Translations under genes and position numbers: made by a program
Notes under the pieces: model-generated
Seen by the model: only the letters and a program-made list of their open reading frames with translations
What the model was told of the DNA's origin: nothing
The model's database searches: none
Shown here: one piece after another, positions 26,904 through 45,535 of the stretch
Layout: each line of letters starts with the position of its first letter
How positions within the stretch are numbered: the first letter of the stretch is position 1
Virus record (IMG/VR): IMGVR_UViG_3300020460_001010
Coordinates: 1-64,000 of that record
DNA: 64,000 nucleotides
Source: a virus
Taxonomy: Duplodnaviria > Caudoviricetes
Reading direction: 5' to 3' (one strand)

Positions 26904-27831
26904 TATTCTGATAAGATGTCGGAACATCCACATAGGTGATGTGATTTTTTCAAGCAGTGTTGCAAAGAAACTGAAAGAAAGAAATCCAAATTGCATTGTT
27001 CACTATGACATCAATTATTTGCAACCTATGGAGTTGCTTATCAACAATCCTTATATAGACGGAGTGTATTACAAGGAAACCGCAAATGTAGATTATGATG
27101 TAGTATATCAATTGATGAATGATGATGTGTCTACATTAAGTCCGTATGAGTCAGCAGTTTCTCAGTTTCAACGAATGTGTGGAATTGAAAATTTCGATGA
27201 TACCTTTGAAGTTTTTACAAATCCTCAACTCGATTATTCTATACAAAGAAGTATGGAGGAATTGACGCAAATTGGTGATTGGGACAATGACCTGATTAAA
27301 ATAGGATATCAGTCGGATTGGGACAGAAAAAGTTTTCTGTTTACTGAAGAGGAATATTATCGTGCGGAGGGTGGAGAAGATGGAACTGGGTACGGAAGTG
27401 GAAAACGAAATGTATTTGACATAATTAACTGCTTGGAGATTTCCCCAAAAATTATGTTGTTTGCATTGGGTATTGATGAAAAGGTTTCAAAGAATTATCC
27501 TTGTTTGAATTCAACTAGCAAATTTTCATTTACTGCAAGTTTGATGAAGAATTGTGATTATGTTATCGGGGGTGAGGGATGCCTTACAAATGTTTCATCT
27601 GCACTTGGTACAAAAACAATAATAACTACCGACTATATCTATCAGATGTTCGGCCCAAAGGGAATTAGGTGGCAACAAAATGGAGGTGATACAAATAGTC
27701 TGGAAACTCGTAAACCATTTTTGGGTCCAAATGTTTATTTTCCAGAAGGTGGTCATGTTGAGTTAAATCCATTTTTAACGGATGCCCAAGTTGGTGAGAA
27801 AATTTTAAGAATAGCACTTGATGGAAACTAA
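26896..27831 (+). CDS. Glycosyltransferase, GT9 (heptosyltransferase-like)
   Basis: NILIRCRNIHIGDVIFSSSVAKKLKERNP...LLINNPYID and MKNCDYVIGGEG..NVSSALGTKTI match GT9 N- and C-domain patterns; SD GGAGGT before ATG 26896. Confidence 0.75.
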   Translation: MTNILIRCRNIHIGDVIFSSSVAKKLKERNPNCIVHYDINYLQPMELLINNPYIDGVYYKETANVDYDVVYQLMNDDVSTLSPYESAVSQFQRMCGIENFDDTFEVFTNPQLDYSIQRSMEELTQIGDWDNDLIKIGYQSDWDRKSFLFTEEEYYRAEGGEDGTGYGSGKRNVFDIINCLEISPKIMLFALGIDEKVSKNYPCLNSTSKFSFTASLMKNCDYVIGGEGCLTNVSSALGTKTIITTDYIYQMFGPKGIRWQQNGGDTNSLETRKPFLGPNVYFPEGGHVELNPFLTDAQVGEKILRIALDGN

Positions 27832-30427
27832 AGAAAAATACGTAAAGATACGAAGGCTCAATCCAAGTAAACCGGTTGTAGTTTACTCGGGTAGTATGAT
27901 TCAGCAAAACCACGGAGAACTCCCCCGTGGTCATGGATATGTGTTGTGGGATGTAAAGGAACGCAAACCAAAGCACGTAGAGGTTCACAACGACTATGGA
28001 TATTATACTATAACCGTGCGTGATGGTGCGTGTGTTAGTGACTTGAGTCTATTGCCCAACAAGGCAAGGTTGCGAGTGAAGGTTTACAACACAACCGCAG
28101 CCGAGACCAAACAGATACTTGCGGACATTCGTAAGCATACAAGTATCACGGATTTGAATGTTACGAGGTGCGATGCAATTTCAGAAGCAAAAAAGTTTGA
28201 TAGAGATAGTCAGTTTAATTTTGGTGACATAACACAGACATCTGTTCAGAATGACTTGATAGAAGATTATTTAACTCGTAATTTTGTTGTAGACGAGGAG
28301 CAGATAAAAACCGCACTTGATATAAACAAGGAGGTCAATGGAAAGTTGACTATCAAGGAAATACTTCGCAATTGTATTTGGAAACCCAAGACATTTGAGT
28401 TCGGAAATATGTTCAGTTATGGTGACGGAAACGTTATTGACTTTTCCAACATGAAAAGTGTCATGGGGTTGTTTGCTTCAAATGCTTCGGGTAAGAGTTC
28501 CATTATGAGTGCTTTGAGTTTCTGTTTGTTTGACAAATGCGATAGAGCATTCAAGGCAGCTCATGTGCTTAATACAACTTGTAGTGATTTTAAGTGTAAG
28601 TTGAATTTTGAAATTGAAGGTGTGGATTATTATATTGAACGAGTGGCCACCACCAAAAAGAATGGAGATGTAACTGTCTCGGTTGACTTTTGGAAAGTTG
28701 ACGAAAATGGAGATACGGTTTCGTTGAACGGAGAGATGAGGTCGGGTACTAATGCGATTATTCGTGACCACGTAGGTTCGTATGATGACTTTGTTCTTAC
28801 CACACTCAGTTTGCAGAATAATAATTCTATTTTTATAGATAAAAGTCAAAGTGAAAGAAAAGACCTTCTTGCACAATTCATGGGTATTGATATATTTGAT
28901 AGACTTCACTCAACTGCATCGGAAGATATTAAGGAGGTTAATGCGTTGCTTAAAAGATTTAATCGTGAAGATTTCAGTGAGATTCTCGCAGAGAACCAGA
29001 AAAACTTGGAAGCTAAGGAGGGTGAGTATACTACACAACAAACTTTAACCGAGGGATATGTCACGAAGCAACGAAAGTTGAATGAAAAACTAGTTAAGAT
29101 AAACTCCGAATACAAGACGTGTTCTACTGAAGAGCAAGATTTGGATTTGGATGAACTTGAGTTTGAACAAAAGAATCTGCAAGAAAGATTAACCACTGCA
29201 AATTCCACCAGAGAGTCCACGTCCAATGAAAAACGACAACTTGCTACAAAAAGAAAAGAAGTGAAGAATTTGGTTGCTACACATGAAAAGAATGAAGTGG
29301 AGTTTGAGAGGGAACGAGTTGAGCAAGTTCAAAAGAAACTTGTGGTGGTTGATAAAGACCTTGCGGTATTACGAACTTCGGTTAATGCTAAGTTGGATAA
29401 GTTAAAGCATTTCAAGGATCATGATTATGACCCCGAGTGTGAGTATTGCGTAAAAAATGCAAAGAGTATTATAGAATCAAAAGATGAAACCCGCAAAGCA
29501 CTTGATAAAGATAAAGCAGAAGCAAACAAGTTGGTGGAACTTAGAAATGGTTATTTGGAAGATTTGGGTGATGCCGATGAAATTGAGACAAACTACAAAG
29601 AACTTAGAGATGCACGTAATGAAGTTAGGCAATTGTCGTATGAAATAAATGAAAAGGATAGCAAGATACTTGCGTTGTCTTCTATGATAGAGTCGTTGGA
29701 AAAGGATATAAAAATAAATGCAGATAAGATTGTTATGTACCACGAATGCCGTGATACCATATTGTTCAATAAAGAACTTAAAAAGTCTGCGTCTTTGATT
29801 CAAGACGAATTAAAAGTAGTTGATTCTGATGTTGAACGAGAAACTGCTAAGTCTCAAGTTCTGTTTGGTGAAGTAAAGGTGTTTGAAAAAGAACACGATG
29901 ATATTCTGAAATCCATTGAAGAGGCAAAGGGATTTGAACGAAAGAAACGTGGTTATGAATTATACTTGGATGCGGTTAAACGAGATGGTATTCCGTATGA
30001 ACTGATTTCCCAAACAATTCCGAGTATTGAAAGTGAAGTGAATAATATTCTATCACAAATCGTTGATTTTACTATGCAACTTGAAATGGACGGAAAGCAC
30101 ATCTACTCTAAGATTGTATACGAAGACAGACATTGGCCACTCGAAATGTGTAGTGGAATGGAACGGTTTATCAGCAGTATTGCTATGCGAGTTGCACTCA
30201 TAAACGTCTCAAGTCTACCGAGGTCTAATTTCTTGGCAATTGATGAGGGTTGGGGTTCGTTGGACGGAGACAACATCAATAGTGTATTTAATCTATTTAC
30301 TTACCTAAAAGGTCAGTTTGAGTTTATTCTTGTAATCAGTCACCTTGATATTATGCGTGACATGGTTGATGAGATTATAGAAATTCAATCTAAAGATGGA
30401 TATAGTCGGATAAAATATGGGGTATAA
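27821..30427 (+). CDS. sbcC: C-terminal SbcD segment fused to SbcC/Rad50 (gp46-like) ABC ATPase
   Basis: N-terminal VVYSGSMIQQNHGE..HGYVLWD; Walker A ASNASGKSS; coiled coil with CEYC hook; signature CSGME; Walker B AIDEGWGSLD; ISHL. Confidence 0.9.
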   Translation: METKEKYVKIRRLNPSKPVVVYSGSMIQQNHGELPRGHGYVLWDVKERKPKHVEVHNDYGYYTITVRDGACVSDLSLLPNKARLRVKVYNTTAAETKQILADIRKHTSITDLNVTRCDAISEAKKFDRDSQFNFGDITQTSVQNDLIEDYLTRNFVVDEEQIKTALDINKEVNGKLTIKEILRNCIWKPKTFEFGNMFSYGDGNVIDFSNMKSVMGLFASNASGKSSIMSALSFCLFDKCDRAFKAAHVLNTTCSDFKCKLNFEIEGVDYYIERVATTKKNGDVTVSVDFWKVDENGDTVSLNGEMRSGTNAIIRDHVGSYDDFVLTTLSLQNNNSIFIDKSQSERKDLLAQFMGIDIFDRLHSTASEDIKEVNALLKRFNREDFSEILAENQKNLEAKEGEYTTQQTLTEGYVTKQRKLNEKLVKINSEYKTCSTEEQDLDLDELEFEQKNLQERLTTANSTRESTSNEKRQLATKRKEVKNLVATHEKNEVEFERERVEQVQKKLVVVDKDLAVLRTSVNAKLDKLKHFKDHDYDPECEYCVKNAKSIIESKDETRKALDKDKAEANKLVELRNGYLEDLGDADEIETNYKELRDARNEVRQLSYEINEKDSKILALSSMIESLEKDIKINADKIVMYHECRDTILFNKELKKSASLIQDELKVVDSDVERETAKSQVLFGEVKVFEKEHDDILKSIEEAKGFERKKRGYELYLDAVKRDGIPYELISQTIPSIESEVNNILSQIVDFTMQLEMDGKHIYSKIVYEDRHWPLEMCSGMERFISSIAMRVALINVSSLPRSNFLAIDEGWGSLDGDNINSVFNLFTYLKGQFEFILVISHLDIMRDMVDEIIEIQSKDGYSRIKYGV

Positions 30428-30442
30428 ACATATTTAGATATA

Positions 30443-30450
30443 TATTTATT
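30443..30450 (+). promoter_or_regulatory. TATTTATT putative late promoter
   Basis: Recurrent motif at the head of the 30473-37114 cluster. Confidence 0.55.
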
Positions 30451-30472: not shown

Positions 30473-31519
30473 ATGGAAAATTCCGACAAAAAGCAAGAAC
30501 TTGAAGAAACTCTAATTCAAGCAGGACTTCGCAAGGGTTATTTTACTCTAGTTGAGGGTGTATATGATCCTGGTATTTTGAAGGCAGTATTTCTTGCCGG
30601 TGGTCCTGGTTCTGGTAAGTCAGCAGTAATAGACACTGTGTTTAATGTTGCTCCTGAAGCAAAGTCTTTGACATCTTCTGGATTGAAAATAGTGAATAGT
30701 GATAGTTCGTTTGAACATTTGCTTAAGAAAGCAGGTCATAGTTTGGACTTGGGTTCATTGGATGACGAGGTGTTTAATCAAATTACAAGTGATGACCCAA
30801 ACTCAATTCGTTCCAAGGCAAAGCAAATAATGTTACAACAATTTGCTCATTACAAAAACGGAAGACTTGGTGTTATTATTGACGGAACGGGTGATGACTA
30901 TGCTAAAATATCCAAGCAAAAGAAAGAGTTGGAAAAACTTGGTTATGATTGCTATATGGTGTTTGTTAATACTTCACTTGAAGTTGCTCAACAAAGAAAC
31001 GCATTTCGTGCAAGAAAACTTCCAAGGAAATTAGTGAAAGCAGTTTGGACTGACGTGCAAAAAAACATGGGAAGATTCCAAAGTGCATTCAAGCAAAATT
31101 TCACCATCATAGATAATTCAGAAGATTTAAGAAGTAAGACAAAACCAGGAAAACTTGATCTTGCTCCTTTTATATTAAAAGCAACTGCAAAGTTTGTTGC
31201 AAAACCAATTCGCAATCCAATTGGAAAAGAGTGGATTAGTTTGATGATGAAACATGACAAGGTTACCAAAAGTGGTGATAAACGCAACAGACTTCGTGAA
31301 GACGAAGATACCGAGAGTGAAACAGACCCATTGGAGGATGTGACACTACCAATGGATCTGGAGAGATATTTGGGCAGAACTATCCACATCATAGAAAAGT
31401 TCGATTTGCAACCAAGAAAGAATCTTGCAGTTTTGTCGAGGTTGGTTGATAGTTTAGAACTTAATAAAAATCAATTTATTAGATTTTTTAATAAAATAAA
31501 GGCAAGTAAGTTTGACTAA
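30473..31519 (+). CDS. P-loop kinase (zeta-toxin/AAA_33/polynucleotide-kinase-like)
   Basis: AVFLAGGPGSGKS, VNSD, IIDGTG, lid VNTSLEVAQQRNAFRAR. Confidence 0.8.
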   Translation: MENSDKKQELEETLIQAGLRKGYFTLVEGVYDPGILKAVFLAGGPGSGKSAVIDTVFNVAPEAKSLTSSGLKIVNSDSSFEHLLKKAGHSLDLGSLDDEVFNQITSDDPNSIRSKAKQIMLQQFAHYKNGRLGVIIDGTGDDYAKISKQKKELEKLGYDCYMVFVNTSLEVAQQRNAFRARKLPRKLVKAVWTDVQKNMGRFQSAFKQNFTIIDNSEDLRSKTKPGKLDLAPFILKATAKFVAKPIRNPIGKEWISLMMKHDKVTKSGDKRNRLREDEDTESETDPLEDVTLPMDLERYLGRTIHIIEKFDLQPRKNLAVLSRLVDSLELNKNQFIRFFNKIKASKFD

Positions 31520-31887
31520 TGGATCATGATGTTCGTATCGATACCAACCAATTGATTTCAGAATTGATTTCAGAATCTCTTGGGGACACCTGGAAACTTG
31601 AATTGGCTGCGACTGGAAAAAAATTCAGTTATGCTTCAAAGAGAGATGGTAATAGGTCGTGGGCAGACAAGATGGCAAAGAAACTTGTAAAAGATTCAAT
31701 TGAGGATTATGAGTTTATAGGGATATTCAGTGAGGGTGAGTCCTCCGAGGGTCCCATACTCACGGGTGTCGTTTATCATTGTACTGAATTTTACTTAAAA
31801 AAGTCACCATATATGTACTTTGAGAAAAAGGATGCGTGTAAAATTGTATTTAAAACAAAAAAACCAACTGAATATATAGAAGGGTAA
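31519..31887 (+). CDS. Hypothetical protein (LISELISE leader)
   Basis: Translationally coupled ORF. Confidence 0.7.
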   Translation: MDHDVRIDTNQLISELISESLGDTWKLELAATGKKFSYASKRDGNRSWADKMAKKLVKDSIEDYEFIGIFSEGESSEGPILTGVVYHCTEFYLKKSPYMYFEKKDACKIVFKTKKPTEYIEG

Positions 31888-31889
31888 TT

Positions 31890-32414
31890 ATGGGTATTGA
31901 AGAGTATAAGAGATATAAAGATGATCCGTTTTGGATGAAGTCAAAATACGATGGAGTTTCCGGTGAGCAAAGATTACCAGTTCAACGCAGATTGCGAAAG
32001 GGCGGTGTTAAGTTTAAGAAGGGTGATGAAATATTGTATTACCCTAAAGGTAAAGTGATATTGGTTGGAAAAGACGCAGAGCAAGCATGGAGAGATTTCC
32101 AGGCAGCTGCCCAAGACGAAGATTTTTATATGTCTCAATATGAGGAGTCGATAATGGAAAAACAAATACAAGAAAAATATGATAGTTCGGAATACAAGAA
32201 GGCAATCAAGTTTATGTCGGGATTGCATTCAAGTATCTTGAAGGCACGTGATAAAGTAATTCGTTGGTTAGAACGAAAAGGTTTTAACAAGATAGCAGAT
32301 GATATTGATGATATGAATTCAAAGGAATGGAATGCCTTTTTGTCCAATAAAGTATATGAGCAGAAATTGCGAAATGAAATTCGGACCATGTTGACTGAAC
32401 TACTAAATAAATGA
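31890..32414 (+). CDS. Hypothetical protein, probably head-associated
   Basis: Coupled ORF; C-terminal EQKLRNEIRTMLTE helix. Confidence 0.7.
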   Translation: MGIEEYKRYKDDPFWMKSKYDGVSGEQRLPVQRRLRKGGVKFKKGDEILYYPKGKVILVGKDAEQAWRDFQAAAQDEDFYMSQYEESIMEKQIQEKYDSSEYKKAIKFMSGLHSSILKARDKVIRWLERKGFNKIADDIDDMNSKEWNAFLSNKVYEQKLRNEIRTMLTELLNK

Positions 32415-34933
32415 CAAAAAATCGGACAGACGCACTCACTTCTGATCTAACGGAGTATATGCTTGGTGATTTACTTGCCGAAGCACCCAAGATTACAAAG
32501 GTGATTGGAATATATCCTGGTAGATTTCAACCTGCTGGATTGCACCACTATAAAACATATAAGTGGTTGGACAAACAATTTGACGAAGCATGGGTTGCGA
32601 CTAGCAACAAAACAGATGCAACTAAAAGTCCATTGAATTTTAAAGAAAAGGAAATGATATGGACAAAGCATAAAGTAAAGAATGTTGTTCAAGTTAAGAA
32701 TCCGTATGTGTGTGAAGAATTATTAAAAAAGTATGACCCGAACAAAACTGCGGTGGTTTATATTTTTGGTGCTAAAGATGCAGGTAGATTGAAAACAAAA
32801 AAGGTGGACGGAACTCCTGGATACTATCAGTCGTATGCAAAGAACAAAAACAATTTAGAACCATATGCCAAACACGGATATTTTATTGTTGCTCCTCATG
32901 TGAGCATCAAGGTTCTTGGAAAGGAAGTAAACGGAACATATATTCGTGAACTTCTTGGTAGTCCAAAGTATACAGATGCACAAAGAGTAGAAGCATTTGA
33001 GCAATTGTTTGGTTGGTATGACGAAAAGATTTATGTGTATTTGAAAAAGAAGTTTAGTACTTTGTTTGAAAACGAAGAAATTTTTGAGGGATTTCTTCGT
33101 GAATATCCTGGAATTGAAACTTTCGTAAATACCCTACCCAGAGATATATTGGAACTTAGTAGTGTTTCTGGATTGGGAAAGACGATGGTCGATGATGGAC
33201 CTACTGGATATTTTCCAGGAGACGCATATGAAACTCATACCAAAGGTCGTGCGGAGATGCTTGGGTATGAAGTATTGGATTATGTGGTTGGGAAGAATTC
33301 TACATCACGGAATTCTGATTATAGAATGTGGGGGGATTATTCTGGTCCCGTACCAAGTGTTTCATTTTTTCCATCTGGGGACATTGATGAGAAGACACCA
33401 ACCAATCAAATAGAATTCGAAAATTCAAAGAAGGCATATGCCACTTGGGAAAACTTCATAAAATCATCCGCAGAGGTAGTCGGATTTAAGATTGTGGATT
33501 TTCTTGGTGCGGATATGTCCATCCGCAAACGTGACGAGCAGGGTGATGAGGATATGGAATCCAAGTTTGTTATTGATGCCGAAGAGTCGGAAGATGCTGA
33601 CGAGATTGAATCAGGTGTCGAGGGTCAACTGGTAAGTGAAAGTAAACTTATAACAGAGGGTGGAGCTGCGGGTCATATGAGCCATCCATTTGATGATAGG
33701 GAATTAACGTTTGCAGACCTCAAGGAAATGATTCGTAGATCTTTATCAGGTGAACTAAATGTTGAGAAGGAAGTCACGGAAAAACTTGATGGACAAAACC
33801 TAATGTTCAGTTGGAAAGACGGAAAACTAATATCGGCAAGAAACAAAGGTCATCTTAAGAATGCAGGCGCAGCTGCTCCAGATGTTGCCGGTATTGAAGA
33901 AATGTTTTCGGAAAAACCAGAAAATATCCGTGACGCATTCGTGGCCGCAGTCAAGGATTTGTCTACGGCAATATCCAAGTTAAGTGATGCTCAGAAGAAT
34001 AAGGTGTTTAAGGAAGGTGAACGATTTATGAACATCGAGGTAATGACACCCGCAACACAGAATGTCATACCACAGAACAAAGATATGTTGGTATTCCACG
34101 GAACACAGGCATACGATTCGGCCGGATTGCCAGTATCAGTAGATTCTGATGGGAATGATATAACTGGTGAACTTAAAGGTTCTGCGAAAATGTTGGAGGG
34201 AATGCTTCGACAAATCAATGCTAATATTCAAAGTCGGTATTCGTTAAATGCACCGATTGTTGTGGAATTGCCTAAAAGCAAATCTTTCGGTGAATCCCTC
34301 GCAAAGTATTCTGCTATGATAGATAAACTTAAAAAAGAATTTAATTTAAAAAATAACGATAAGATAATGAAGTATCATGATGCATGGTGGAGAAATCTTT
34401 TGAATAAACAACAAGCACAAAAGAAAGAAGTATTTCCGTCAAACGTATATGAAGCACTGATAGGTAGGTGGGCATATAACGACAAATCAAACAAGATTAC
34501 AACGATACGTATGGATCTGTCCAAGCAACCCAAACTACTTGCGTGGGTAAACAAATTTGAAAAAGAAGATATAGTAAAGCAGTTTGAAAAGAATATGTGG
34601 CCATTTCAATTCATCTTTTTGAAGTTGGGTGCAGAAGTGTTACAAAACGTAAAAGGATTTGTGGCAGCCGGTGGTTCTGACGATATTGCTAAAGCATTGG
34701 ATACCCACATCAAAACTCTGGAGAAAAAGAAAATGAGCTCTGTGGAATCCACGGAGAAGTTTAAGAAAGACATGGAGAAGTTGAACAAGAATCTTGCTCG
34801 TTTGAATGCCATAGGAGGAACGGATGCGATTGCACCTTCGGAGGGAATTGTATTCCAATATAAAGGGGGTACATATAAATTGACAGGCACTTTCGCACCG
34901 ATAAACCAAATTATGGGTATAATGAGGTTTTAA
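32411..34933 (+). CDS. Multidomain protein: cytidylyltransferase-like (HxGH-type) NTase, middle domain, and C-terminal KxDG ligase-like domain
   Basis: IYPGRFQPAGLHH, SPLNFKEK, VKNPY, FGAKDAGRL, NGTYIR; after LITE: GGAAGHMSHPFDD, TEKLDGQN, NIEV, EGIVF, YKLTG. Confidence 0.75.
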   Translation: MTKNRTDALTSDLTEYMLGDLLAEAPKITKVIGIYPGRFQPAGLHHYKTYKWLDKQFDEAWVATSNKTDATKSPLNFKEKEMIWTKHKVKNVVQVKNPYVCEELLKKYDPNKTAVVYIFGAKDAGRLKTKKVDGTPGYYQSYAKNKNNLEPYAKHGYFIVAPHVSIKVLGKEVNGTYIRELLGSPKYTDAQRVEAFEQLFGWYDEKIYVYLKKKFSTLFENEEIFEGFLREYPGIETFVNTLPRDILELSSVSGLGKTMVDDGPTGYFPGDAYETHTKGRAEMLGYEVLDYVVGKNSTSRNSDYRMWGDYSGPVPSVSFFPSGDIDEKTPTNQIEFENSKKAYATWENFIKSSAEVVGFKIVDFLGADMSIRKRDEQGDEDMESKFVIDAEESEDADEIESGVEGQLVSESKLITEGGAAGHMSHPFDDRELTFADLKEMIRRSLSGELNVEKEVTEKLDGQNLMFSWKDGKLISARNKGHLKNAGAAAPDVAGIEEMFSEKPENIRDAFVAAVKDLSTAISKLSDAQKNKVFKEGERFMNIEVMTPATQNVIPQNKDMLVFHGTQAYDSAGLPVSVDSDGNDITGELKGSAKMLEGMLRQINANIQSRYSLNAPIVVELPKSKSFGESLAKYSAMIDKLKKEFNLKNNDKIMKYHDAWWRNLLNKQQAQKKEVFPSNVYEALIGRWAYNDKSNKITTIRMDLSKQPKLLAWVNKFEKEDIVKQFEKNMWPFQFIFLKLGAEVLQNVKGFVAAGGSDDIAKALDTHIKTLEKKKMSSVESTEKFKKDMEKLNKNLARLNAIGGTDAIAPSEGIVFQYKGGTYKLTGTFAPINQIMGIMRF

Positions 34934-34934
34934 G

Positions 34935-36350
34935 ATGAAGGTAGATGAACGAACTCTTTCCAGGTCTGCACGAAGAAAGATGTCTCAACGGGCAAGAAGA
35001 ACTGCAAAAAAACGTGCGGTTAAACGAAAATCCCGTGCAAAACGAATGAAGTCAATTGAGCAATTAAAATCAAGTTCGGAGAAACTTGCTAAAAACTTAC
35101 TTGTAAAAAAACTGACAGGGGGTAAGACATATCAACAATTGTCCGTTGGAAAGAAAGAAGTGGTTGATAAGAAACTTGCAAAAAGACCCGGTATCATTAA
35201 AAAAATTGCCCGCAAATTACTACCCAAGGTAAAGGCAAAGGAGAAAGAAAGGTTAATGCGGGTTAGAAACAAATCCAAAGAACTTGCGGAGGCAGTAGAC
35301 CCACTTACGATTGCATCGATAGTTGGAATCACGGGAGGAGCAGTTGCCATTACCGCAACTCTTGCAAAAAAACTTTCGGATGTATTTTCACGCAATAATG
35401 TCAAATTTGACGTAGGTAAAACTTATAAACTTATTAAGAAAAAATACCCACATATCTTTACAATGATAAAGGATCAGAAATTTGGAAAGGGACATCTTGC
35501 AAAATTTATTAAAAAAATAAAGGATGAGATTCCTGGACTGAATAAAAATAAATCTATATATGCCACGACTAATATCATTGATCAACTTATGAAGTATCAT
35601 ATATCACACGCACTTGGGATAAATGATCCGAAACTTGATCCAGATAGATTTAAGAATGAATCAAAAGAAGGCAAGCACGGAGTGTTAACACTCAGTGTAG
35701 ATGGTTCTCAACCAAAGGTATCGGCACGATATGTGAATGGAAATTTAGAACCTTATGTTTTTAAAACACGAAAAGATGCCAAGAAACATACCGATAAGGT
35801 TGGTGGAAAACCATTTGAATCCTCCGACACTGGATTGTTTTATGTGGAGTTTACCAAACTTGACGGACCGGTAAACGAGAAAATTGAATACAAAACTGCA
35901 AACGAAATAAAGAAAGATTGGAAGAAACAATATCCCAATGATAAATTTACTTTCAAAAAAGTTCGTGCCAATGGAAATGAATTTCTTATGGTATTATCTC
36001 CAAAAGGTGTTGAACTTGAAAGATACCAATTTGTACCAAAAACAGGATGGACTGAAATGAACGAGAACAAAGATAACGAAGAAGATGTAAAAGAATTAAA
36101 AGCAATGCTTGATATTGCAAAAATGCTTAGTGATAAAAGTCCATACTTTAAGGGTCGTGGTAGCAAAAAGGAATACATCAAAATGCTTGTCCACAAAATA
36201 CAAAAGTTGTCGGAAGCAAAAAAGCAAAAGTTGATGACAAAAATGGACGCATATAAAAAGGTGCGAAAACCAACTATGCCGAAAAGCAGACCCATGAAAA
36301 ATAAAAAGGCATACGATAGAAAGGACTTAAAGAAGGGTAAATATGATTAA
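34935..36350 (+). CDS. Basic multi-module protein, probable prohead core/internal head protein
   Basis: Very Arg/Lys-rich N-terminus (RRKMSQRARRTAKKR...IARKLLPKVK); modules delimited by xxE sites. Confidence 0.65.
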   Translation: MKVDERTLSRSARRKMSQRARRTAKKRAVKRKSRAKRMKSIEQLKSSSEKLAKNLLVKKLTGGKTYQQLSVGKKEVVDKKLAKRPGIIKKIARKLLPKVKAKEKERLMRVRNKSKELAEAVDPLTIASIVGITGGAVAITATLAKKLSDVFSRNNVKFDVGKTYKLIKKKYPHIFTMIKDQKFGKGHLAKFIKKIKDEIPGLNKNKSIYATTNIIDQLMKYHISHALGINDPKLDPDRFKNESKEGKHGVLTLSVDGSQPKVSARYVNGNLEPYVFKTRKDAKKHTDKVGGKPFESSDTGLFYVEFTKLDGPVNEKIEYKTANEIKKDWKKQYPNDKFTFKKVRANGNEFLMVLSPKGVELERYQFVPKTGWTEMNENKDNEEDVKELKAMLDIAKMLSDKSPYFKGRGSKKEYIKMLVHKIQKLSEAKKQKLMTKMDAYKKVRKPTMPKSRPMKNKKAYDRKDLKKGKYD

Positions 36351-36699
36351 ACTCATGGATGCAGTCATTGGAACGGTGAGTGATAAAGTAAACATCTCCG
36401 TTCAGATCAACAAGACTAAACACGCAGGTGAACGTCAGTCTAGGCACGACCATATGCAAATATCCGAAAAGGACATTATGGATGTTGCCGACAAAGCAAT
36501 ACCTGATATTACGAAGGCATTGTTGTTTGATAGAATTGATGTGGGTGATTATATTCATGTAAAGGATAGAAAGACTGCATTGAATTTAATTGGAATACTT
36601 CAAGAGAAGTCACCCTACAATCTTATGTTTGTGGTGATGACTGTTATGGTAAAACCAAACTTTGTGGCAAAACAAGGAACATATACGATTGTTGTGTAG
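36343..36699 (+). CDS. Small protein with HAxER motif (possible BECR/RelE-like fold)
   Basis: TKHAGERQSRH..ISEKDI, terminal beta strands ending TVMVK. Confidence 0.55.
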   Translation: MIKLMDAVIGTVSDKVNISVQINKTKHAGERQSRHDHMQISEKDIMDVADKAIPDITKALLFDRIDVGDYIHVKDRKTALNLIGILQEKSPYNLMFVVMTVMVKPNFVAKQGTYTIVV

Positions 36700-36712
36700 A
36701 GGATAGCATAAC

Positions 36713-37114
36713 ATGATAAAACTGAATGGAAACATTTATTTAACAGAAGATGAGACGGAGAAGTATGTATATGATATATCGTCTAAATTCACTACATCTC
36801 ATCGAGCAATGTTGCCACGACAGATAGTTTATCTTGATGTTGATTTTGTATCGGATATCAGAGATGAGGCAAAGGAGACTTCATTATCATTGTTTTATTT
36901 GTATGGATATGGTGAACTTCATGCTCCAGTGAGAAAAATTATAGATGCGATTGCAGAACGCAAGAGACCACCGAGTTCATGTACAGAGAAGTTATATTTT
37001 ATGCAATATGATTTGTCGGACACCCAACGTAAGAAGTATAGAATTCAATATGGGAATTATTTGATAAACATATTTCTAGAAGAATGTATACTTAAATTTA
37101 AAAAGTTATCATAG
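36713..37114 (+). CDS. Hypothetical protein
   Basis: ORF with GAGGA RBS. Confidence 0.7.
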   Translation: MIKLNGNIYLTEDETEKYVYDISSKFTTSHRAMLPRQIVYLDVDFVSDIRDEAKETSLSLFYLYGYGELHAPVRKIIDAIAERKRPPSSCTEKLYFMQYDLSDTQRKKYRIQYGNYLINIFLEECILKFKKLS

Positions 37115-37117
37115 TAT

Positions 37118-37146
37118 TTGACAAAATACAAAAAAAGTGGAATAAT
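37118..37146 (+). promoter_or_regulatory. Sigma70-type promoter TTGACA-N17-AATAAT with extended -10 TG, 6 nt before ATG
   Basis: Perfect -35, 17-nt spacer. Confidence 0.6.
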
Positions 37147-37152
37147 AAGGTT

Positions 37153-37779
37153 ATGGCTAAAATGGATAAAGAAGATTTGAAGCACGTGATTAAACGTTCA
37201 CGTAAGTTGTTCAAGGGTGAAGAGATACCCAAAGTGCATGGTTACGAGGGAGAAGTTGAAGAACTTGTCATTCGTCAACCCGGAGAAATTTGGACAGACA
37301 AAGACGGAAAGGAGTGGAAACAGATTGGTGCTAATACAAAGGTACGAACGGATACCTTAATGGATAAGGTTCGGAAAATGACTAGAACTGCACCAAATTG
37401 TCCCAAGGAAGTTTGTACATGTGACACGACTAAGTTTTTGGATAAAAGAATGGTTGCCATGAAAGGAATGTGTTTTGATTGTGTATATGAACATGAGCAA
37501 ACACTACGAGAAGATGGTAAGTATGAAGACTATGAGAAAAAAACTATACTTGAGAACGAGAAAAGTTTTTTGAACGATGCTCGTATAAAGATGGAAGAGT
37601 CTAGAAACTATATCACACAAGACCCTAAGTTTTTGAACGAAGATGGTACACTTGAGAAGTGGAATATTCCAAGCAAGGAAACTTTGATGAAAGAATTGGA
37701 GTCCGATTTGAAGCAACTTAATGACCGACTTGTGGAAATTGATTCTGAACTGGAAAAGTTTGAAGGAATGGAATTTTAG
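37153..37779 (+). CDS. Hypothetical Zn-binding protein
   Basis: GEIWTDKDGKEW, CPKEVCTC...MCFDC; C-terminal coiled coil. Confidence 0.8.
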   Translation: MAKMDKEDLKHVIKRSRKLFKGEEIPKVHGYEGEVEELVIRQPGEIWTDKDGKEWKQIGANTKVRTDTLMDKVRKMTRTAPNCPKEVCTCDTTKFLDKRMVAMKGMCFDCVYEHEQTLREDGKYEDYEKKTILENEKSFLNDARIKMEESRNYITQDPKFLNEDGTLEKWNIPSKETLMKELESDLKQLNDRLVEIDSELEKFEGMEF

Positions 37780-37825
37780 ACGATACCTCCAACTTTTTGT
37801 TTTTGTAAAAAAGATTATATATACA

Positions 37826-37833
37826 TATTTATA
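37826..37833 (+). promoter_or_regulatory. TATTTATA putative late promoter, 4 nt before terminase ATG
   Basis: Recurrent motif. Confidence 0.6.
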
Positions 37834-37837
37834 GTGG

Positions 37838-39448
37838 ATGACCGAAAAAAAAGATCTACCACTTAGAGAAAAAATTAAACAAGAGTATGCGGAGTGTCTG
37901 AAGTCACCTGTGTATTTTATGAAAAAGTATTGTAAAATACAACATCCGACTCTTGGTACAATACCATTTCATTTATACGACTTCCAGGAGAAAACTCTTG
38001 AGAGTTTTAAAGATGAGCAGTTTAATATAGTCCTAAAGGCACGTCAGATGGGTATTTCAACACTTGTGTCGGGATACGCATTGTGGTTGATGACATTCTT
38101 TACAGACAAGTCAATTCTTTGTATAGCAATCAATCAAGAGACGGCAAAGAATATTGTTACCAAAGTAACGCATATGTCAGACTTTTTACCTTCTTGGTTA
38201 CGTAGTGAGTGTACGGAAAAAAACAAATTGAGCATGAGGTTCAAAAACGGAAGTAGTATTCGTGCGGCGTCGAGTAGTGTAGACGCATCCCGTTCATCTT
38301 CGTTGAGTTTGCTCATAGTGGACGAGTGTGCCTTTATTACTAACATGGAGGAAATATGGACTGCATCGCAATCTACGATTACAACAGGAGGTCGTTCTAT
38401 TCTGCTATCTACTCCAAATGGAATTGGTAACTTTTTTCATAAGACATGGGTTGGGTCGATGGAGGGATCTAATCAATTCAATCCAATTAAACTTCATTGG
38501 TCGTTACATCCGGACAGAGATCAGTCATGGAGGGATGAGCAAACTACATTGCTGGGAGAGAGTGGTGCAACGCAAGAATGTGATTGTGATTTTGTTACAA
38601 GTGGTAATTCGGTTGTGGATTCCACAATTGTAGAGTGGTATAAAAATAATGTTGTGAAAGAACCACTTGAACGACGGGGTGTTAATAGAGAATACTGGAT
38701 TTGGGAGTATCCAGATCATTCTAAGAATTATGTGGTTGCAGCTGACGTTGCCCGAGGTGATGGAAAAGATAAAAGTGCATTTCATGTGTTTGATGTTGAG
38801 AGTTTACGACAAGTCGCGGAATTTCGTGGTGATATGGAAACTAAGGACTATGGAAATTTATTAGTTGCAGTTGCATCTGAATATAACGGTGCGTTGCTTG
38901 TTGTTGAAAATGCTAATATTGGATGGGCAGTTTTACAACAGATACTTGACCACGGATATGCCAATTTATATTACACACAGAGGGATTATCAATATGTTGA
39001 TGAACTTGCACAACATACAAATAAAATAAACCGGATGGAGAAGAAGCAAGTTCCTGGATTTACGATGTCTACAAAAACTAGACCACTTGTAATAAGCAAG
39101 ATGGAAACATATATGCGAGAAAAAGAACTAGTTATAAATTCAGAGAGAACTGTAGAGGAACTTTTTACATTCATATGGAGTGGCATGAAGGCAGAAGCAA
39201 TGCCAGGATATACAGATGACTTGGTAATGAGTCTGTGTATTGCATTGTGGGTCAGAGACACTGCTCTTAGATTTAGATCCGAGAGCATGAATACGCAAAA
39301 AACTATGTTTGATTATATGGGGACTAGTAATAATGTATTGAATGATGACCATCAAAAACCAATTGGCAAAAACGGTATGCCATACAATCCGTATGAAATG
39401 AAAAATCCACACGGAGGAACGGAAAGCTTGGACTGGTTACTTAAATAA
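37838..39448 (+). CDS. terL: Terminase large subunit (gp17-like)
   Basis: LYDFQ, LKARQMGIST, LIVDECAF, LSTPNG, nuclease ADVARG, VVENAN, DDLVMS. Confidence 0.96.
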   Translation: MTEKKDLPLREKIKQEYAECLKSPVYFMKKYCKIQHPTLGTIPFHLYDFQEKTLESFKDEQFNIVLKARQMGISTLVSGYALWLMTFFTDKSILCIAINQETAKNIVTKVTHMSDFLPSWLRSECTEKNKLSMRFKNGSSIRAASSSVDASRSSSLSLLIVDECAFITNMEEIWTASQSTITTGGRSILLSTPNGIGNFFHKTWVGSMEGSNQFNPIKLHWSLHPDRDQSWRDEQTTLLGESGATQECDCDFVTSGNSVVDSTIVEWYKNNVVKEPLERRGVNREYWIWEYPDHSKNYVVAADVARGDGKDKSAFHVFDVESLRQVAEFRGDMETKDYGNLLVAVASEYNGALLVVENANIGWAVLQQILDHGYANLYYTQRDYQYVDELAQHTNKINRMEKKQVPGFTMSTKTRPLVISKMETYMREKELVINSERTVEELFTFIWSGMKAEAMPGYTDDLVMSLCIALWVRDTALRFRSESMNTQKTMFDYMGTSNNVLNDDHQKPIGKNGMPYNPYEMKNPHGGTESLDWLLK

Positions 39449-39469
39449 ATCAACTTGGAGACAATTATT

Positions 39470-40072
39470 ATGAAAACGCAAATTATACTCACTATTGGGG
39501 GACTAATATTTACTGGTGGATGTACCACACAATCGTTACTACCAACACAGGGAGTATATACTGAATCTGCATTTGAATCATACACTCAAGTTGAGGGGGT
39601 GGTTAACAAGATTGTTGTTGGGGAGACGAAATATTCAGACTTGGTGGCAATGGGACTTGACTTGGAGAATATTCCGAATGTCAAGAGACTTACTTATCTT
39701 GATGTGATGAGTAAGTTCAAGTTGGATAGTCCGTCACGATTTACTTTGTTTAATAAAATTGAATTGCCGTCCGGGGTTCTTAAAATGCTGGCTGCGAGGG
39801 AGGATGGTCTTGCATATGAAATAAATTTGGAAAGATTGAAAAATCAAAGAGAAGGAAGTTTGTTTTTGGATATGCTTAATTTTAGAAAAACAATACATAC
39901 AACCGGTTGGCAAATTAGTGTGTTGATTTTAATTGTAGATGGTACGGTTGAGTATGTATTATATTCGGGTGAGAAGAATATTGATAAAATAGAAAAAGAA
40001 CGAAATCCACTTGGACCATTTCAAGGATTTGATGGGGGTGACATCGTGGGAGCCGCAAGTGAGTTGAGGTGA
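39470..40072 (+). CDS. Lipoprotein
   Basis: Signal peptide MKTQIILTIGGLIFTGG-C with lipobox Cys18; GGAG RBS. Confidence 0.75.
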   Translation: MKTQIILTIGGLIFTGGCTTQSLLPTQGVYTESAFESYTQVEGVVNKIVVGETKYSDLVAMGLDLENIPNVKRLTYLDVMSKFKLDSPSRFTLFNKIELPSGVLKMLAAREDGLAYEINLERLKNQREGSLFLDMLNFRKTIHTTGWQISVLILIVDGTVEYVLYSGEKNIDKIEKERNPLGPFQGFDGGDIVGAASELR

Positions 40073-40085
40073 TGTATATATTAGT

Positions 40086-40114
40086 TTGACAAATACATAT
40101 ATATTACATACAAT
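40086..40114 (+). promoter_or_regulatory. Sigma70-type promoter TTGACA-N17-TACAAT upstream of portal (late-type CATTTATA follows at 40119)
   Basis: Near-consensus hexamers and spacing. Confidence 0.6.
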
Positions 40115-40136
40115 CATACATTTATAAGGTTATATT

Positions 40137-42011
40137 ATGGCAGAAAAATCACGATCAGGAAAAATATTCGGAGGACTTAAAAAATTATTTTCTTCAGATG
40201 TAATTGTTAGGAATGTAGGAGGTAAAAAACTTAAAGTGGTGGATACGGATGATATCCAATATACAAGTAAGTTGCGAGATAAGTATAATCGTCTACACAC
40301 ATTATACAGTGATTATACAAGTAGATACAATAGCATTGGATTTCAAACCGCACGACTAGAATTATTTAGTGATTACGATATGATGGAAAATGACCCAATC
40401 ATATCAAGTGCACTTGACATATATGCAGATGAATCCACAACTAAAAGTGAATTTGGTGATATTTTAAAAATCTCAAGCAATGATTCAAATGTTAAGGGTA
40501 TCCTTGAAAATTTATTTTATGATATATTGAATATTGAGTTTACGTTGTGGGGGTGGACTCGTAATATGTGTAAGTATGGAGATTTTTATTTGCATCTAGA
40601 AATTGAACCAGACTATGGTGTACTTAATGTAAAACCCATATCGACATACGAAATGACTCGTATTGAGGATACTGATCCGGAAAATCCTTCATATGTTGTT
40701 TTTAAACAAGAGGGTGCATATAAGGCAGATTATGAAAACTATGAAATAGCACATTTTAGAATGTTGGGTGATAGTAACTTTCTTCCGTATGGAAAAAGTG
40801 TTATTGAATCGGGTAGACGGGTATGGAAGCAATTGCAGTTGATGGAAGATGCTATGCTTGTTCACCGAATAATGAGAGCTCCTGAAAAACGAATGTTTTA
40901 TATTGATATTGGTAACATTCCACCAAATGAGGTTGATGGATTTATGCAAAAGGTCATTGCCAAAATGAAGAAAGTTCCGTATGTAGATGAAAGAACTGGA
41001 GACTATAATTTAAAATTTAATATGCAAAATATGACCGAAGATTTCTTCATGCCGGTGCGTGGTGGTGATAGTGGTACTCGCATTGAGAACATGGGTGGAA
41101 TGACATATGACGGTACGGAGGATATTGAGTATGTTAAGAATAAAATGATGGCCGCACTCAAAGTTCCCAAGGCCTTTCTTGGATATGAAGAGGGAATTAC
41201 TGGTAAGGCAACTCTTGCGGCCGAGGACATTCGGTTTGCAAGAACAATAGAACGAGTTCAGAGAATTATGCTGAGTGAGTTAACTAAAATTGCGGTAGTA
41301 CACTTATATAGTCAGGGATATACGGACTCCAAGTTGGTGGATTTTGATTTACAACTTACAAATCCGTCTACTATATTTGAAGAAGAACGGGTCAGGATTT
41401 TAAGTGAAAAGTTGAACACTTCCAGAGATATGCTGGATGCCAAGATGTTCTCCAAGAAGTGGGTGTATGATTCAATTTTTGGACTATCCGAAGAAGAGGT
41501 GGAGGAAATACGTCAAGATTTTGTACAAGATGCCAAAGAATACTATAGACTTGAGAGCATACAGAATGAGGGAACTGACCCTGCCGATCCGTCATCACCA
41601 CCACCCGCAGGAGACAACGAAACTGAATGGGGATTTGGTGAGTTTGAGGATACCGACAAAGATGCGGAACCGGAAGACCGAGTACATCAGAAACACAAAG
41701 AAGAAAATAAACGAAAAAATGCTAATAAAAAATACGACCACCCTGATAACAAACCAATGGGACGTGACCCACTTGGAGCAACTGAACGCAAGGTTTCTGG
41801 TAGAAATTGGAGTGACAGTCCACTGAAACTTGAGGCAGATTTGGAACAACTTGATGTATATCTTAATAAAAAGAAAGAGACGTCGGTGTCAAAAAAAGAA
41901 ATACTTGTAGAGGATATGGAGGAAAAAATAACTAAAAAAAATTCTTCCGATGAAACCCCTAAACTGAACACTGGGAGCATATTGGACGAAGATAATTTAA
42001 TCAATAAGTAA
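40137..42011 (+). CDS. gp20: Portal protein (T4 gp20-like)
   Basis: LMEDAMLVHRIMRAPEKRMFYIDIGN, EDFFMPVRG, ALKVPKAFL, DIRFARTIERVQ. Confidence 0.96.
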   Translation: MAEKSRSGKIFGGLKKLFSSDVIVRNVGGKKLKVVDTDDIQYTSKLRDKYNRLHTLYSDYTSRYNSIGFQTARLELFSDYDMMENDPIISSALDIYADESTTKSEFGDILKISSNDSNVKGILENLFYDILNIEFTLWGWTRNMCKYGDFYLHLEIEPDYGVLNVKPISTYEMTRIEDTDPENPSYVVFKQEGAYKADYENYEIAHFRMLGDSNFLPYGKSVIESGRRVWKQLQLMEDAMLVHRIMRAPEKRMFYIDIGNIPPNEVDGFMQKVIAKMKKVPYVDERTGDYNLKFNMQNMTEDFFMPVRGGDSGTRIENMGGMTYDGTEDIEYVKNKMMAALKVPKAFLGYEEGITGKATLAAEDIRFARTIERVQRIMLSELTKIAVVHLYSQGYTDSKLVDFDLQLTNPSTIFEEERVRILSEKLNTSRDMLDAKMFSKKWVYDSIFGLSEEEVEEIRQDFVQDAKEYYRLESIQNEGTDPADPSSPPPAGDNETEWGFGEFEDTDKDAEPEDRVHQKHKEENKRKNANKKYDHPDNKPMGRDPLGATERKVSGRNWSDSPLKLEADLEQLDVYLNKKKETSVSKKEILVEDMEEKITKKNSSDETPKLNTGSILDEDNLINK

Positions 42012-42085
42012 TTTTTTAAAAAATATTAAGTGATAATTATAGTTATATCTATATTTATGTTCATATATATTAGTTTGATTTTCAC

Positions 42086-42958: not shown

Positions 42959-43505
42959 AACTCAAATTCGTAGAATTATTCGTAAAATAGTGCGAGAGGT
43001 TATGTCCGAGTCACATGATTGTAATTCCGTACACCCCGAAATTTCGCATGAAGACTGGGAACATGAACAAGATTCCATTGAGGAATTGAATGCGACATCA
43101 AATGTCGATGGATATCAGACACCATTTGCATTTTCGGATAAATCTGAAGACGATCATGAGGAAGATATAAAAGATACTGCGGAAGTATTTGATTTCAAGA
43201 AAACCGAGAACCAAGCACTGAATACTGTTAAACTTGAGGAAGGGAAAAGTCTATATCATCTATACAGAGACCATGCAGATTACAGTCCTGCACAGAAGAT
43301 AGGAGTTACTGTTAGGGAAGTCAATCGTTTGTTGACTGAAATTGAAAAGTTGTTGCGGGTCAGTTCACGATTCAAGACAGAAACCAATCTTGGTACTGGG
43401 GCATTTTGGAAAACAACCAATAGATACTTATCGAATATTGATGAGAAAATATTTAGAATATTGAGTAAAGTTAAAGATATTAAGGAAAAAAGTTATGAAG
43501 AATAG
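42945..43505 (+). CDS. Hypothetical head-associated protein
   Basis: IRRIIRKIVREVMSE leader, GYQTPFAF motif, several xxE sites. Confidence 0.75.
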   Translation: MATTETQIRRIIRKIVREVMSESHDCNSVHPEISHEDWEHEQDSIEELNATSNVDGYQTPFAFSDKSEDDHEEDIKDTAEVFDFKKTENQALNTVKLEEGKSLYHLYRDHADYSPAQKIGVTVREVNRLLTEIEKLLRVSSRFKTETNLGTGAFWKTTNRYLSNIDEKIFRILSKVKDIKEKSYEE

Positions 43506-45534: not shown

Positions 45535-45535
45535 T

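Follow-up and report, generated by a model that had tools for sequence, protein, structure and literature searches.

Introduction

Several phages are known to package enzymes in the virion and inject them into the host, as illustrated by Alt and the internal proteins of T4, the virion RNA polymerases of N4 and phiKZ, and the Dar proteins of P1. A 64,000-nt stretch of the IMG/VR virus record IMGVR_UViG_3300020460_001010 (positions 1 to 64,000 of the 94.6-kb record; hereafter, the window), all of whose genes lie on the + strand, raises the question of whether a tailed marine phage does the same with a set of nucleic acid enzymes. Close to its head genes, the window encodes a 348-aa P-loop kinase and an 840-aa protein that combines a nucleotidyltransferase, a middle module containing the motif DDGP, and a ligase-type domain. 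The enzymatic parts of both proteins are bounded by [L/I]xE triplets, and an earlier reading of the DNA (the original prediction) had taken them for a kit that is packaged, released by the prohead protease and injected to act on broken RNA or depleted nucleotides. Our computational analysis leads us to favor, if by no great degree of confidence, the view that a conserved cargo module, made up of the kinase and the 840-aa protein, forms part of the head-gene block of a T4-like marine phage. Coordinates of all features are given in Table 1.

Domain architecture of the kinase and the 840-aa protein

The kinase gene most likely starts at the ATG at 30473, which carries an AAGGA Shine-Dalgarno sequence, and its product reads ...FTLVE/GVYDPG...GGPGSGKS and, later, ...NRLRE/DED (slashes mark the putative cleavage points). 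Pfam matched it to Zeta_toxin (2.5e-11, 43.8 bits; cut-off, 22.3) and AAA_33 (5e-8, 33.8 bits; cut-off, 27), and PHROGs to phrog_12810 (3.9e-36) and, weakly, to the polynucleotide kinase family phrog_505 (2.9e-4). Judged by these profiles, the protein belongs to the Zeta-toxin/AAA_33/polynucleotide-kinase clade of P-loop kinases; the Pnk/zeta-like kinase of the original prediction was thus upheld by both Pfam scores and the Walker A motif. More than 7,500 relatives were found, most of them ~245-290 aa long and aligning to query residues ~30-265 only, while the C-terminal tail is kept only among close relatives of roughly 350 aa and has no family match in Pfam or NCBIfam. Neither of these collections revealed an HAD or phosphoesterase domain in the 348-aa protein, which in this respect does not share the bifunctionality of T4 Pnk. 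Syn9 gp186 was considered as a kinase homolog and rejected as not homologous. In Methylophilales phage Melnitz-3 (MZ577098 58858-73493), a kinase relative (47% identity) lies within the tail/baseplate gene region and is followed by an NT5C-type (HAD) 5'-nucleotidase gene, an arrangement that recalls the kinase-phosphatase pairing of T4 Pnk.

The 840-aa protein reads ...DLLAE/APKITK...GRFQPAGLHH, ...RDILE/LSS...VDDGP, ...KLITE/GGAAGHMSHPFDD...EKLDG...EGIVFQYKGGTYKLTG; both open reading frames (ORFs) and the LVE/G, LRE/D, LAE, ILE and LITE motifs lie where they had been placed. Its leader is predicted to form a helix (residues 5-22) at a low predicted local distance difference test score (pLDDT) and follows the pattern M..kLTEeLIkpfL..xE in relatives, some of which have no leader at all. 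Residues 25-220 were modeled by AlphaFold2 at pLDDT >88. This region matches Pfam PF01467 (CTP_transf_like) right at the cut-off of 21 (3e-4, 21.4 bits), and its best Foldseek matches, at a probability of 1.00, were NadM nicotinamide mononucleotide adenylyltransferases (NMNATs; 1.9e-4) and phosphopantetheine adenylyltransferase (PPAT; ~4e-4). It also aligned with the cytidylyltransferases of cyanophages (hhalign Prob 93.5, E 2.3e-7). The canonical HxGH following GxFxP is replaced by GLHH, as had been suspected, and the site varies among relatives (PFHxGH, PFGPHH, PMGKHH), with the cyanophage relatives retaining PPHAGH. A second signature resembling ISxTxxR, or (S/N)GTxxR, is present as NGTYIR, in which G175, T176 and R179 are conserved at ≥90%. 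The model and the profile match identify residues 25-220 as a predicted HIGH-fold nucleotidyltransferase with a degenerate HxGH motif; since PPAT likewise lacks the first His of HxGH, the domain may still be active.

The DDGP region (residues ~226-416) was poorly modeled, with pLDDT mostly <60, has no Pfam match, and is missing from Microcystis phage Mel-JY01 and many other relatives. Foldseek comparison, one of the checks proposed in the original prediction, returned NadM/PPAT for the N-terminal domain and RNA ligases for the C-terminal domain. Four metagenomic relatives (~1,155 aa, 76-77% identity) bear an extra N-terminal region of ~320 residues, for which no match was found to the kinase, to the 122-aa and 174-aa proteins encoded between the two genes, or to Pfam.

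The ligase-type domain and its probable relationship to DUF6267

Residues 417-840 gave a confident predicted model (pLDDT 91.8; predicted template modeling score, 0.90). The domain opens with GGAAGHMSHPFDD and carries motif I (K458-L-D-G, 33782-33793), motif III (E543), motif IV (E811-G812) and motif V (K823), with the Glu of motif III, the EG of motif IV and the Lys of motif V in canonical order. Across 61 diverse sequences, G417, G421, H422, K458, D460, G461, R477, G536, E543, G812 and K823 were invariant, and E811 was conserved at ≥90%. Two features set the family apart: an N-terminal motif, GGAxGHMxHPFDD, and a helical insert of ~180 residues between motifs IIIa and IV. Structural alignment with VIA-align placed the domain closest to Rnl5 (5cot; Z 9.0, 191 aligned residues, root-mean-square deviation 4.2), followed by T4 Rnl2 (8.3), Trl1 (7.7) and T4 Rnl1 (7.4), and the first 18 rows of an exhaustive structural comparison held only ligases or capping enzymes, with RNA ligases leading. 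DNA ligases were also neighbors, at Z 5-6.8 and below the RNA ligases. The top Foldseek hits were all RNA ligases, although their E-values were weak (from 6e-3), and a weak Pfam match was obtained to the NAD-dependent DNA ligase adenylation domain (0.0099). When the kinase and the 840-aa protein were searched against the PDB with phmmer, neither gave a significant match, and the ligase-type domain was not captured by any Pfam or NCBIfam model. On the strength of its motifs and predicted fold, we assign the C-terminal domain as a new RNA-ligase-like lysine nucleotidyltransferase. Ligase motifs I, IV and V had been recognized in the original prediction; the present comparison found them invariant and added motif III and the RNA-ligase fold.

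The 840-aa protein matched 3,228 representative clusters at E ≤ 1e-3, and most of these matches cover the C-terminal domain, which is the constant part of the family, occurring alone or behind variable N-terminal regions. All 11 [LI]xE triplets of the protein fall within its first 497 residues; residues 498-840 contain 0 where ~3.6 would be expected, which may reflect selection against protease sites in a mature ligase domain.

DUF6267 (PF19782; gathering cut-off, 27 bits) gave no match to the 840-aa protein at E ≤ 0.1 and none anywhere in the 94.6-kb record, and BLASTP between the ligase-type domain and the DUF6267 protein of Pelagibacter phage HTVC008M was not significant. Comparison of the two families yielded 0.18 for profile to single sequence and a weak E of 0.018 over 128 columns for profile to profile (hhalign). 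In the nearest ESM-Atlas clusters (score 0.96), about a quarter of members carry DUF6267. The ligase-type domain is thus probably a distant relative of DUF6267, as judged from these profile comparisons. A capsid-targeting leader on DUF6267 proteins was considered and dropped, since LLVE occurs only in HTVC008M and not in Syn9, S-WAM1 or S-CRM01. Our literature search found no mention of DUF6267, Mel-JY01 or "cytitidyltransferase".

Conserved [L/I]xE triplets and the prohead protease

Conservation of [LIVM]xE was ranked over 838 positions of the 840-aa protein in 56 non-redundant, diverse relatives. The triplet at 246 (ILE) was kept in 89% of them, followed by those at 414 (ITE, 80%), 455 (ligase motif I, 75%), 22 (LAE, 67%) and 218 (LFE, 51%), making LAE, ILE and ITE the best-conserved non-catalytic [LIVM]xE triplets of the protein. 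All three junctions fall in segments modeled by AlphaFold2 at pLDDT <50; conservation within a protein is normally lowest in its linkers. In wider sets of representatives, a triplet stood directly before GGxxGH in 108 of 135 and no more than 25 aa upstream of D[DES]GP in 55 of 58. The kinase showed a comparable regularity, with [LIVM]xE[GAS] exactly 17 residues before the P-loop in every one of the 118 P-loop-bearing relatives examined. At its C-terminal junction, the Glu is conserved while position P3 varies (L/V/M, or R/K/Q in divergent members).

The window also encodes a gp21-type prohead protease, the presumed processing enzyme for these junctions, and its major capsid protein carries LIDE/A ~40 residues before VQPM, as in T4 gp23. 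Between the protease and capsid genes (45536-48850) lie four proteins whose short leaders end in L/I-x-E (MEKNEVIRLIKE, MKRSELKDYIFQVLLE, MKITRKELKE and MSKLLKE). Extreme acidity (21-26% Glu) marks two of them, and the four are probably scaffold, core or internal proteins. An N-terminal [LIVM]xE[AGS] was found in 9/20 genes within 30473-48850, compared to 6/49 elsewhere in the genome (Fisher p = 0.005).

Fusions and gene neighborhoods of relatives

Seven representative proteins join a kinase relative (29-50% identity) and the ligase domain in one chain, and the nucleotidyltransferase is present as well in five of these, in the order kinase-nucleotidyltransferase-ligase or nucleotidyltransferase-kinase-ligase. 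Because relatives join the three domains in one chain in different orders, comparison of the sequences indicates that the kinase and the 840-aa protein form one functional unit. A Pfam census of 35 long relatives counted CTP_transf_like in 28, Zeta/AAA_33 kinases in 5, HD in 2, and 2H and KTI12 in 1 each; the head of PolyA_pol (CCA-adding enzyme) with its RNA-binding domain occurred in 3 of the 35, and Tox-ART-HYD1 in one relative.

Gene order around the ligase domain was followed in 80 IMG/VR viral contigs bearing a relative of it (42-87% identity). A homolog of the large terminase (TerL) lies downstream in 79 of the 80, and contigs of sufficient length show the order kinase, nucleotidyltransferase, ligase, TerL, portal, gp21-like protease. 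The protease was found downstream in 29 related loci, including 22 of the 29 that extend ≥11 kb. Mel-JY01 has the same layout, minus the middle (DDGP) module. In HTVC008M, genes for DUF6267, a kinase and a CTP_transf_like protein are neighbors, and in T4-like cyanophages the DUF6267 gene adjoins a "cytidylyltransferase" gene. In cyanophage S-CRM01 (NC_015569 100464-109639), a Ser/Thr-kinase gene (g130) has the DUF6267 gene (g132) on one side and that of the cytidyltransferase (g127) on the other, and a kinase of Ser/Thr type has been reported from S-CRM01 virions (PMC10665884).

Virion proteomes of related phages

In Agrobacterium jumbo phage Atu_ph07, a relative of the kinase (38% identity, 1e-33) forms the middle of the 778-aa protein AUZ94865, which we equated with gp53 of Table S5 of the published proteome on the basis of its mass (87.07 versus 87,08 kDa) and of neighbors that match in series. 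Electrospray ionization tandem mass spectrometry of Atu_ph07 virions detected gp53 with 31 unique peptides and 45.5% coverage, and it was most abundant in gel band 9, alongside proteins of 21-24 kDa, i.e., at ~22 kDa rather than 87 kDa (PMC6102473). The protein starts MKWNDLNE/A, which is similar to the capsid-targeting sequence of T4, and has VTE/G before the kinase core and NL(T/N)E/LFDT before two C-terminal repeats; cleavage at these motifs predicts a kinase fragment of 23.0 kDa. Within this locus (MF403008 34468-47073), the gp53 gene lies beside those of the paralogous ~30 kDa proteins gp55-gp65, all of which are in the virion proteome.

The cytidylyltransferases of cyanophages begin MRFRQFIIE/A or MKKFSAFLSE/A and in this resemble the 10-residue capsid-targeting sequence of T4, which suffices for packaging and whose residues 8 and 10 are determinants of processing; Alt and the internal proteins of T4 enter the host by ejection (PMC9026906). 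S-SZBM1_140 and its neighbor _139 were detected in S-SZBM1 virions (PMC9146016), as was the cytidylyltransferase ORF154 in those of S-CREM2, and NMNAT-like virion proteins have been listed for three other cyanophages (PMC10665884).

Genome setting and the upstream octamer

Past the 840-aa gene, the order is a basic 471-aa protein, three small genes, TerL, portal, prohead protease, acidic scaffold-like proteins and the T4-type major capsid protein, after which come the sheath and tube genes (Table 1). Thus, the kinase and 840-aa genes are co-oriented with and adjacent to head genes. The closest capsid proteins were those of Flavobacterium phage immuto (52%), Mel-JY01 (48%) and Rhodothermus phage RM378 (37%). 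Since the capsid protein is closest to those of Bacteroidota phages (immuto and RM378) and of Mel-JY01, the host may be a marine member of the Bacteroidota rather than SAR11 or a cyanobacterium. No tRNA genes were found in the window.

Table 1. Positions of the features of the kinase/ligase locus and its surroundings (positions in the window)
Feature	Position	Strand	Remarks
SbcD, glycosyltransferase, SbcC	26199-30427	+	
ATATTTAT motif	30442..30449	+	24 nt upstream of kinase start
Kinase gene, 348 aa	30473-31519	+	Zeta/Pnk-type P-loop kinase
Kinase N-terminal leader, residues 1-28, ends LVE/G	30473..30556	+	
P-loop kinase core	30557..31300	+	Walker A GGPGSGKS at 30599-30622; ends NRLRE/D
Acidic linker and conserved kinase C-terminal tail (LPMDLERYL...)	31301..31519	+	
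Two small genes (122 aa and 174 aa) between kinase and 840-aa gene	31519..32414	+	
840-aa gene	32411-34933	+	Nucleotidyltransferase, DDGP module, ligase-type domain
Leader of 840-aa protein, residues 1-24, ends LAE/A	32411..32482	+	
Predicted HIGH-fold (cytidylyltransferase-like) nucleotidyltransferase domain, residues 25-220	32483..33070	+	
Spacer ending ILE/L (residues 246-248), then DDGP module (residues 249-416), ending ITE/G	33071..33658	+	
Predicted RNA-ligase-like covalent nucleotidyltransferase domain, residues 417-840	33659..34933	+	
Very basic 471-aa protein, same gene run	34935..36350	+	phrog_23027 5.8e-11
TerL	37838-39448	+	phrog_2 8.4e-48 and phrog_213 1.1e-61, listed for terminase-portal block 37838..42011
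205-aa ORF between TerL and portal	within 37838..42011	+	
Portal	40137-42011	+	
gp21-type prohead protease	44902-45534	+	phrog_207 head maturation protease 4.6e-51
Major capsid protein, T4-type	48886-50415	+	

The octamer ATATTTAT, which lies upstream of the kinase gene, occurs in 26 copies versus 7.0 expected, spread over 1683-59623 (e.g., at 17828, 20089, 23956, 30442, 37825, 42051, 47460, 50497, 53908, 56541 and 57337). The + strand copies stand almost exclusively in short gaps right before gene starts, and precede the kinase, TerL, sheath, tube and most structural genes. Several are merely 4-6 nt from the ATG, too near for a normal -10 element, and the octamer could serve as a promoter for transcripts of the leaderless type, mark a processing site or act as a signal in translation. 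The T4 late promoter TATAAATA was not found upstream of the operon. The "late-type operon" of the original prediction may be correct: the genes share the octamer and adjoin the head genes. The octamer also precedes four genes in the replication part of the genome, however, and we did not take it as a late-specific signal.

The 122-aa and 174-aa proteins have no significant family match in Pfam, PHROGs or NCBIfam; their genes are syntenic in seven close viral contigs, and the 122-aa protein has ISE/L and ISE/S in residues 13-19. The 471-aa protein has a Lys/Arg-rich N-terminus, and its gene, directly 3' of the one for the 840-aa protein, shows synteny among close relatives; we regard it as a candidate for a DNA-binding internal head protein or for further cargo, outside the module proper. 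Two of the small ORFs that follow (36343-36699 and 36713-37114) begin MIKLMD... and MIKLNG..., and MIKLMD is also a frequent start of short-leader kinase relatives (MIKLMDILLEG...), a likeness that may be due to chance or to a shared leader.

Proposed capsid cargo and its alternatives

On balance, the evidence from sequence comparison and the analogy with T4 incline us to regard the two proteins as cargo of the capsid: their leaders would direct them there, the prohead protease would cleave them at the conserved junctions, and they would leave the head along with the DNA. Packaging is favored, if indirectly, by the family-wide retention of the junction motifs in flexible linkers, by the gene for a gp21-like protease and the T4-type site still present in the capsid protein, by the synteny of the module with TerL, portal and protease among related contigs, and by the detection of relatives (Atu_ph07 gp53 and the nucleotidyltransferases of S-SZBM1 and S-CREM2) in purified virions. 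In this mechanism, the N-terminal leaders would act like T4 capsid-targeting sequences and bring the proteins into the prohead core, where the protease would cut after the Glu of each motif and free the kinase, the transferase, the DDGP module and the ligase; the pieces would then be ejected with the DNA and so be active before any phage gene is expressed. A number of observations weigh against packaging, however, and several of them fit ordinary cytoplasmic enzymes of RNA repair or nucleotide metabolism, with motifs that are structural or partner-binding and virion signals that reflect co-purification. Raw [LI]xE counts match composition (4 triplets in the kinase against an expected 3.4, and 11 against 8.8 for the 840-aa protein), so that we rejected a simple excess and the mere presence of triplets means little. 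About 20% of ligase domains carry LLM, LLC or LTC in place of LxE. In the kinase family, all of 25 diverse members share E28, G29 and the DxGIxK that follows, and the motif is kept even in relatives whose entire leader is MINE; it may for these reasons be part of the kinase fold. The homologs of HTVC008M and the T4-like cyanophages are split genes in replication modules, after gp41 and MazG, the precedent of T4 Pnk and Rnl1 is cytoplasmic, and the octamer is not specific to structural genes. As to virions, the data come from relatives (Atu_ph07, S-SZBM1 and S-CREM2); the S-CREM2 authors warned that abundant soluble enzymes may co-purify with virions (PMC10665884), and the DUF6267 neighbor is absent among the proteins quoted from the S-SZBM1 virion list (PMC9146016). 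Yet purely cytoplasmic enzymes would leave the conservation of motifs in low-pLDDT linkers, within an otherwise variable region, hard to explain on structural grounds. They would also fit poorly with an Atu_ph07 gp53 that yielded many peptides and ran chiefly near one quarter of its intact mass, with the tight synteny with TerL, portal and protease, and with the decapeptides resembling the T4 targeting sequence on the cyanophage homologs. We consider a cytoplasmic role rather unlikely, though a serious contender.

What the released enzymes would do is less certain than their packaging. The most likely chemistry, by analogy, is the healing and sealing of broken RNA, tRNA in particular, in which the kinase would phosphorylate 5'-OH ends, the ligase would join 5'-P to 3'-OH through a K458-AMP intermediate, and the HIGH transferase would either use a nucleotide as its substrate or supply an adenylylated cofactor, for example NAD. 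RNA is favored because the ligase-type domain is the constant part, the kinase is coupled to it, and CCA-adding, HD, 2H and KTI12 domains occur as partners. Against this stand the non-canonical GLHH of the transferase, a PDB profile search with the kinase family whose sole hit was the kinase of Clostridium thermocellum Pnkp (CthPnkp) at 0.12, and the operon itself, where neither a 3'-phosphatase nor a cyclic phosphodiesterase came to light. A different chemistry, packaged or not, stays in play on account of the NMNAT-like fold and the Zeta-type kinase; in it, a HIGH domain and a nucleotide or dinucleotide kinase would rebuild NAD+ or neutralize immune signaling nucleotides. Comparable phosphorylations are those of UDP-GlcNAc by Zeta, of NAD by AvrRxo1 and of nicotinamide riboside by NadR. 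NadM enzymes and Zeta_toxin are the best Foldseek and Pfam matches of the N-terminal domain and the kinase, respectively, and one relative has a 2H domain and another Tox-ART-HYD1. Moreover, fusions of a HIGH nucleotidyltransferase to a P-loop kinase in jumbo phages have been read as NMNAT plus nicotinamide-riboside kinase (PMC7824862), and NMNAT-like virion proteins are reported in cyanophages (PMC10665884). Small-nucleotide chemistry nevertheless offers no role for the most conserved part, the ligase-type domain, whose structural neighbors are polynucleotide ligases; tRNA is suggested instead by the domains found fused to relatives (CCA-adding enzyme with its RNA-binding domain, HD, KTI12), the HxGH motif is degenerate, and the region examined with Pfam and PHROGs showed neither Nampt nor Nudix as a partner. 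We hold this chemistry to be unlikely. Still another substrate would be the phage genome itself, with DNA nicks or ends healed and sealed during or after packaging, as might be suggested by the location between SbcD/SbcC and TerL and by the DNA ligases among the structural and Pfam matches. Since RNA ligases outrank DNA ligases throughout, the protein has no OB or DNA-binding domain, the fusion partners are directed at RNA, and SbcC is not adjacent in most related loci (it was found in 8 of 80), a role in DNA repair seems very improbable. Returning to RNA repair, the full proposal, that many marine T4-like phages inject a protease-released kit of RNA kinase, adenylyltransferase and RNA ligase of a new clade (the DUF6267 superfamily, thousands of clusters) to reseal host tRNA or mRNA that anticodon nucleases or other abortive-infection RNases have cut, before phage expression begins, is one that we offer tentatively, as possible rather than probable.

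Comparison with known systems and biological significance

In the literature, the T4 internal proteins and Alt come closest in concept; next are the polyvalent proteins that are injected. T4 IPI, IPII, IPIII and the packaged ADP-ribosyltransferase Alt resemble the present proteins in their short leaders ending in [L/I]-x-E plus a small residue, in a gp21-type protease encoded nearby, and in genes beside head genes; Alt is a precedent for enzyme cargo, and relatives of the present proteins have, like the T4 proteins, been detected in virions, one at reduced size. No kinase, HIGH nucleotidyltransferase or RNA-ligase-like enzyme is known from T4 heads, however, the T4 leaders measure 7-10 residues compared to 24-28 in the present phage, and the internal junctions of the 840-aa chain would release several enzymes. 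Polyvalent proteins likewise hold several unrelated enzymatic domains per chain, are encoded beside late or virion genes, and are thought to be processed into units before or after delivery (Iyer et al., 2017; PMC5512222), but their processing is ascribed to a built-in metallopeptidase, whereas the present chain would rely on the prohead protease. None of their hub domains (zincin metallopeptidase, ArdC-N, MuF and DdrB-ParB) was found via Pfam, PHROGs or NCBIfam, which divergent versions may escape, and the same study gives no association of an RNA ligase with their 2H domains (PMC5512222).

As with T4 Pnk and Rnl1, a polynucleotide-kinase-like P-loop kinase is here genetically coupled to a KxDG lysine nucleotidyltransferase, and with the known RNA ligases (Rnl5 of Naegleria, 5cot; Rnl2, 1s68/2hvq; Rnl1, 9do4) the latter shares invariant motifs I, III, IV and V and an adenylyltransferase fold (Z 7.4-9.0). 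It differs from them in lacking sequence similarity detectable by phmmer against the PDB, in adding GGAxGHMxHPFDD and the ~180-residue helical insert, and in lacking the known C-terminal domains. T4 Pnk also has a phosphatase domain that the present kinase lacks, and the T4 enzymes are cytoplasmic rather than virion proteins. The likeness to DUF6267 (T4-GC 71, a core gene of T4-like cyanophages) lies in the motif order (G/T)H(M/L)xH(P/L)xDD, K(L/W)DG, NxI.Y, EG(I/Y)V...K and in the partners, which are a HIGH nucleotidyltransferase and, in HTVC008M, also a kinase; the DUF6267 genes, however, stand alone in replication modules, and the present domain misses the Pfam model. Finally, the NadR- or NadM-like enzymes of phage NAD salvage, in which a HIGH NMNAT is fused to a P-loop kinase or Nudix, match the present module in combining a NadM-like HIGH fold with a P-loop kinase, but here the HxGH is degenerate, the kinase is of Zeta/AAA_33 rather than NadR-like type, the constant partner is ligase-type, and neither Nampt nor Nudix was found in the region examined.

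The present work contributes, as new elements, a ranking test of the motifs, a census of fusions, a count of syntenic loci and connections to the proteomes of Atu_ph07 and the cyanophages. The assignment as a predicted RNA-ligase-like lysine nucleotidyltransferase provides a first functional handle on a large uncharacterized family of 3,228 representative clusters that is linked to DUF6267. The junctions also suggest a sequence rule, in which conserved [L/I]xE triplets in flexible linkers, together with a gp21-type protease, would predict capsid cargo in uncultured phages. If the proposed packaging is correct, it would account for the recurrent "cytidylyltransferases" and kinases in cyanophage virion proteomes, and the pre-loaded set of kinase, transferase and ligase would represent a new class of counter-defense acting in the first minute of infection.

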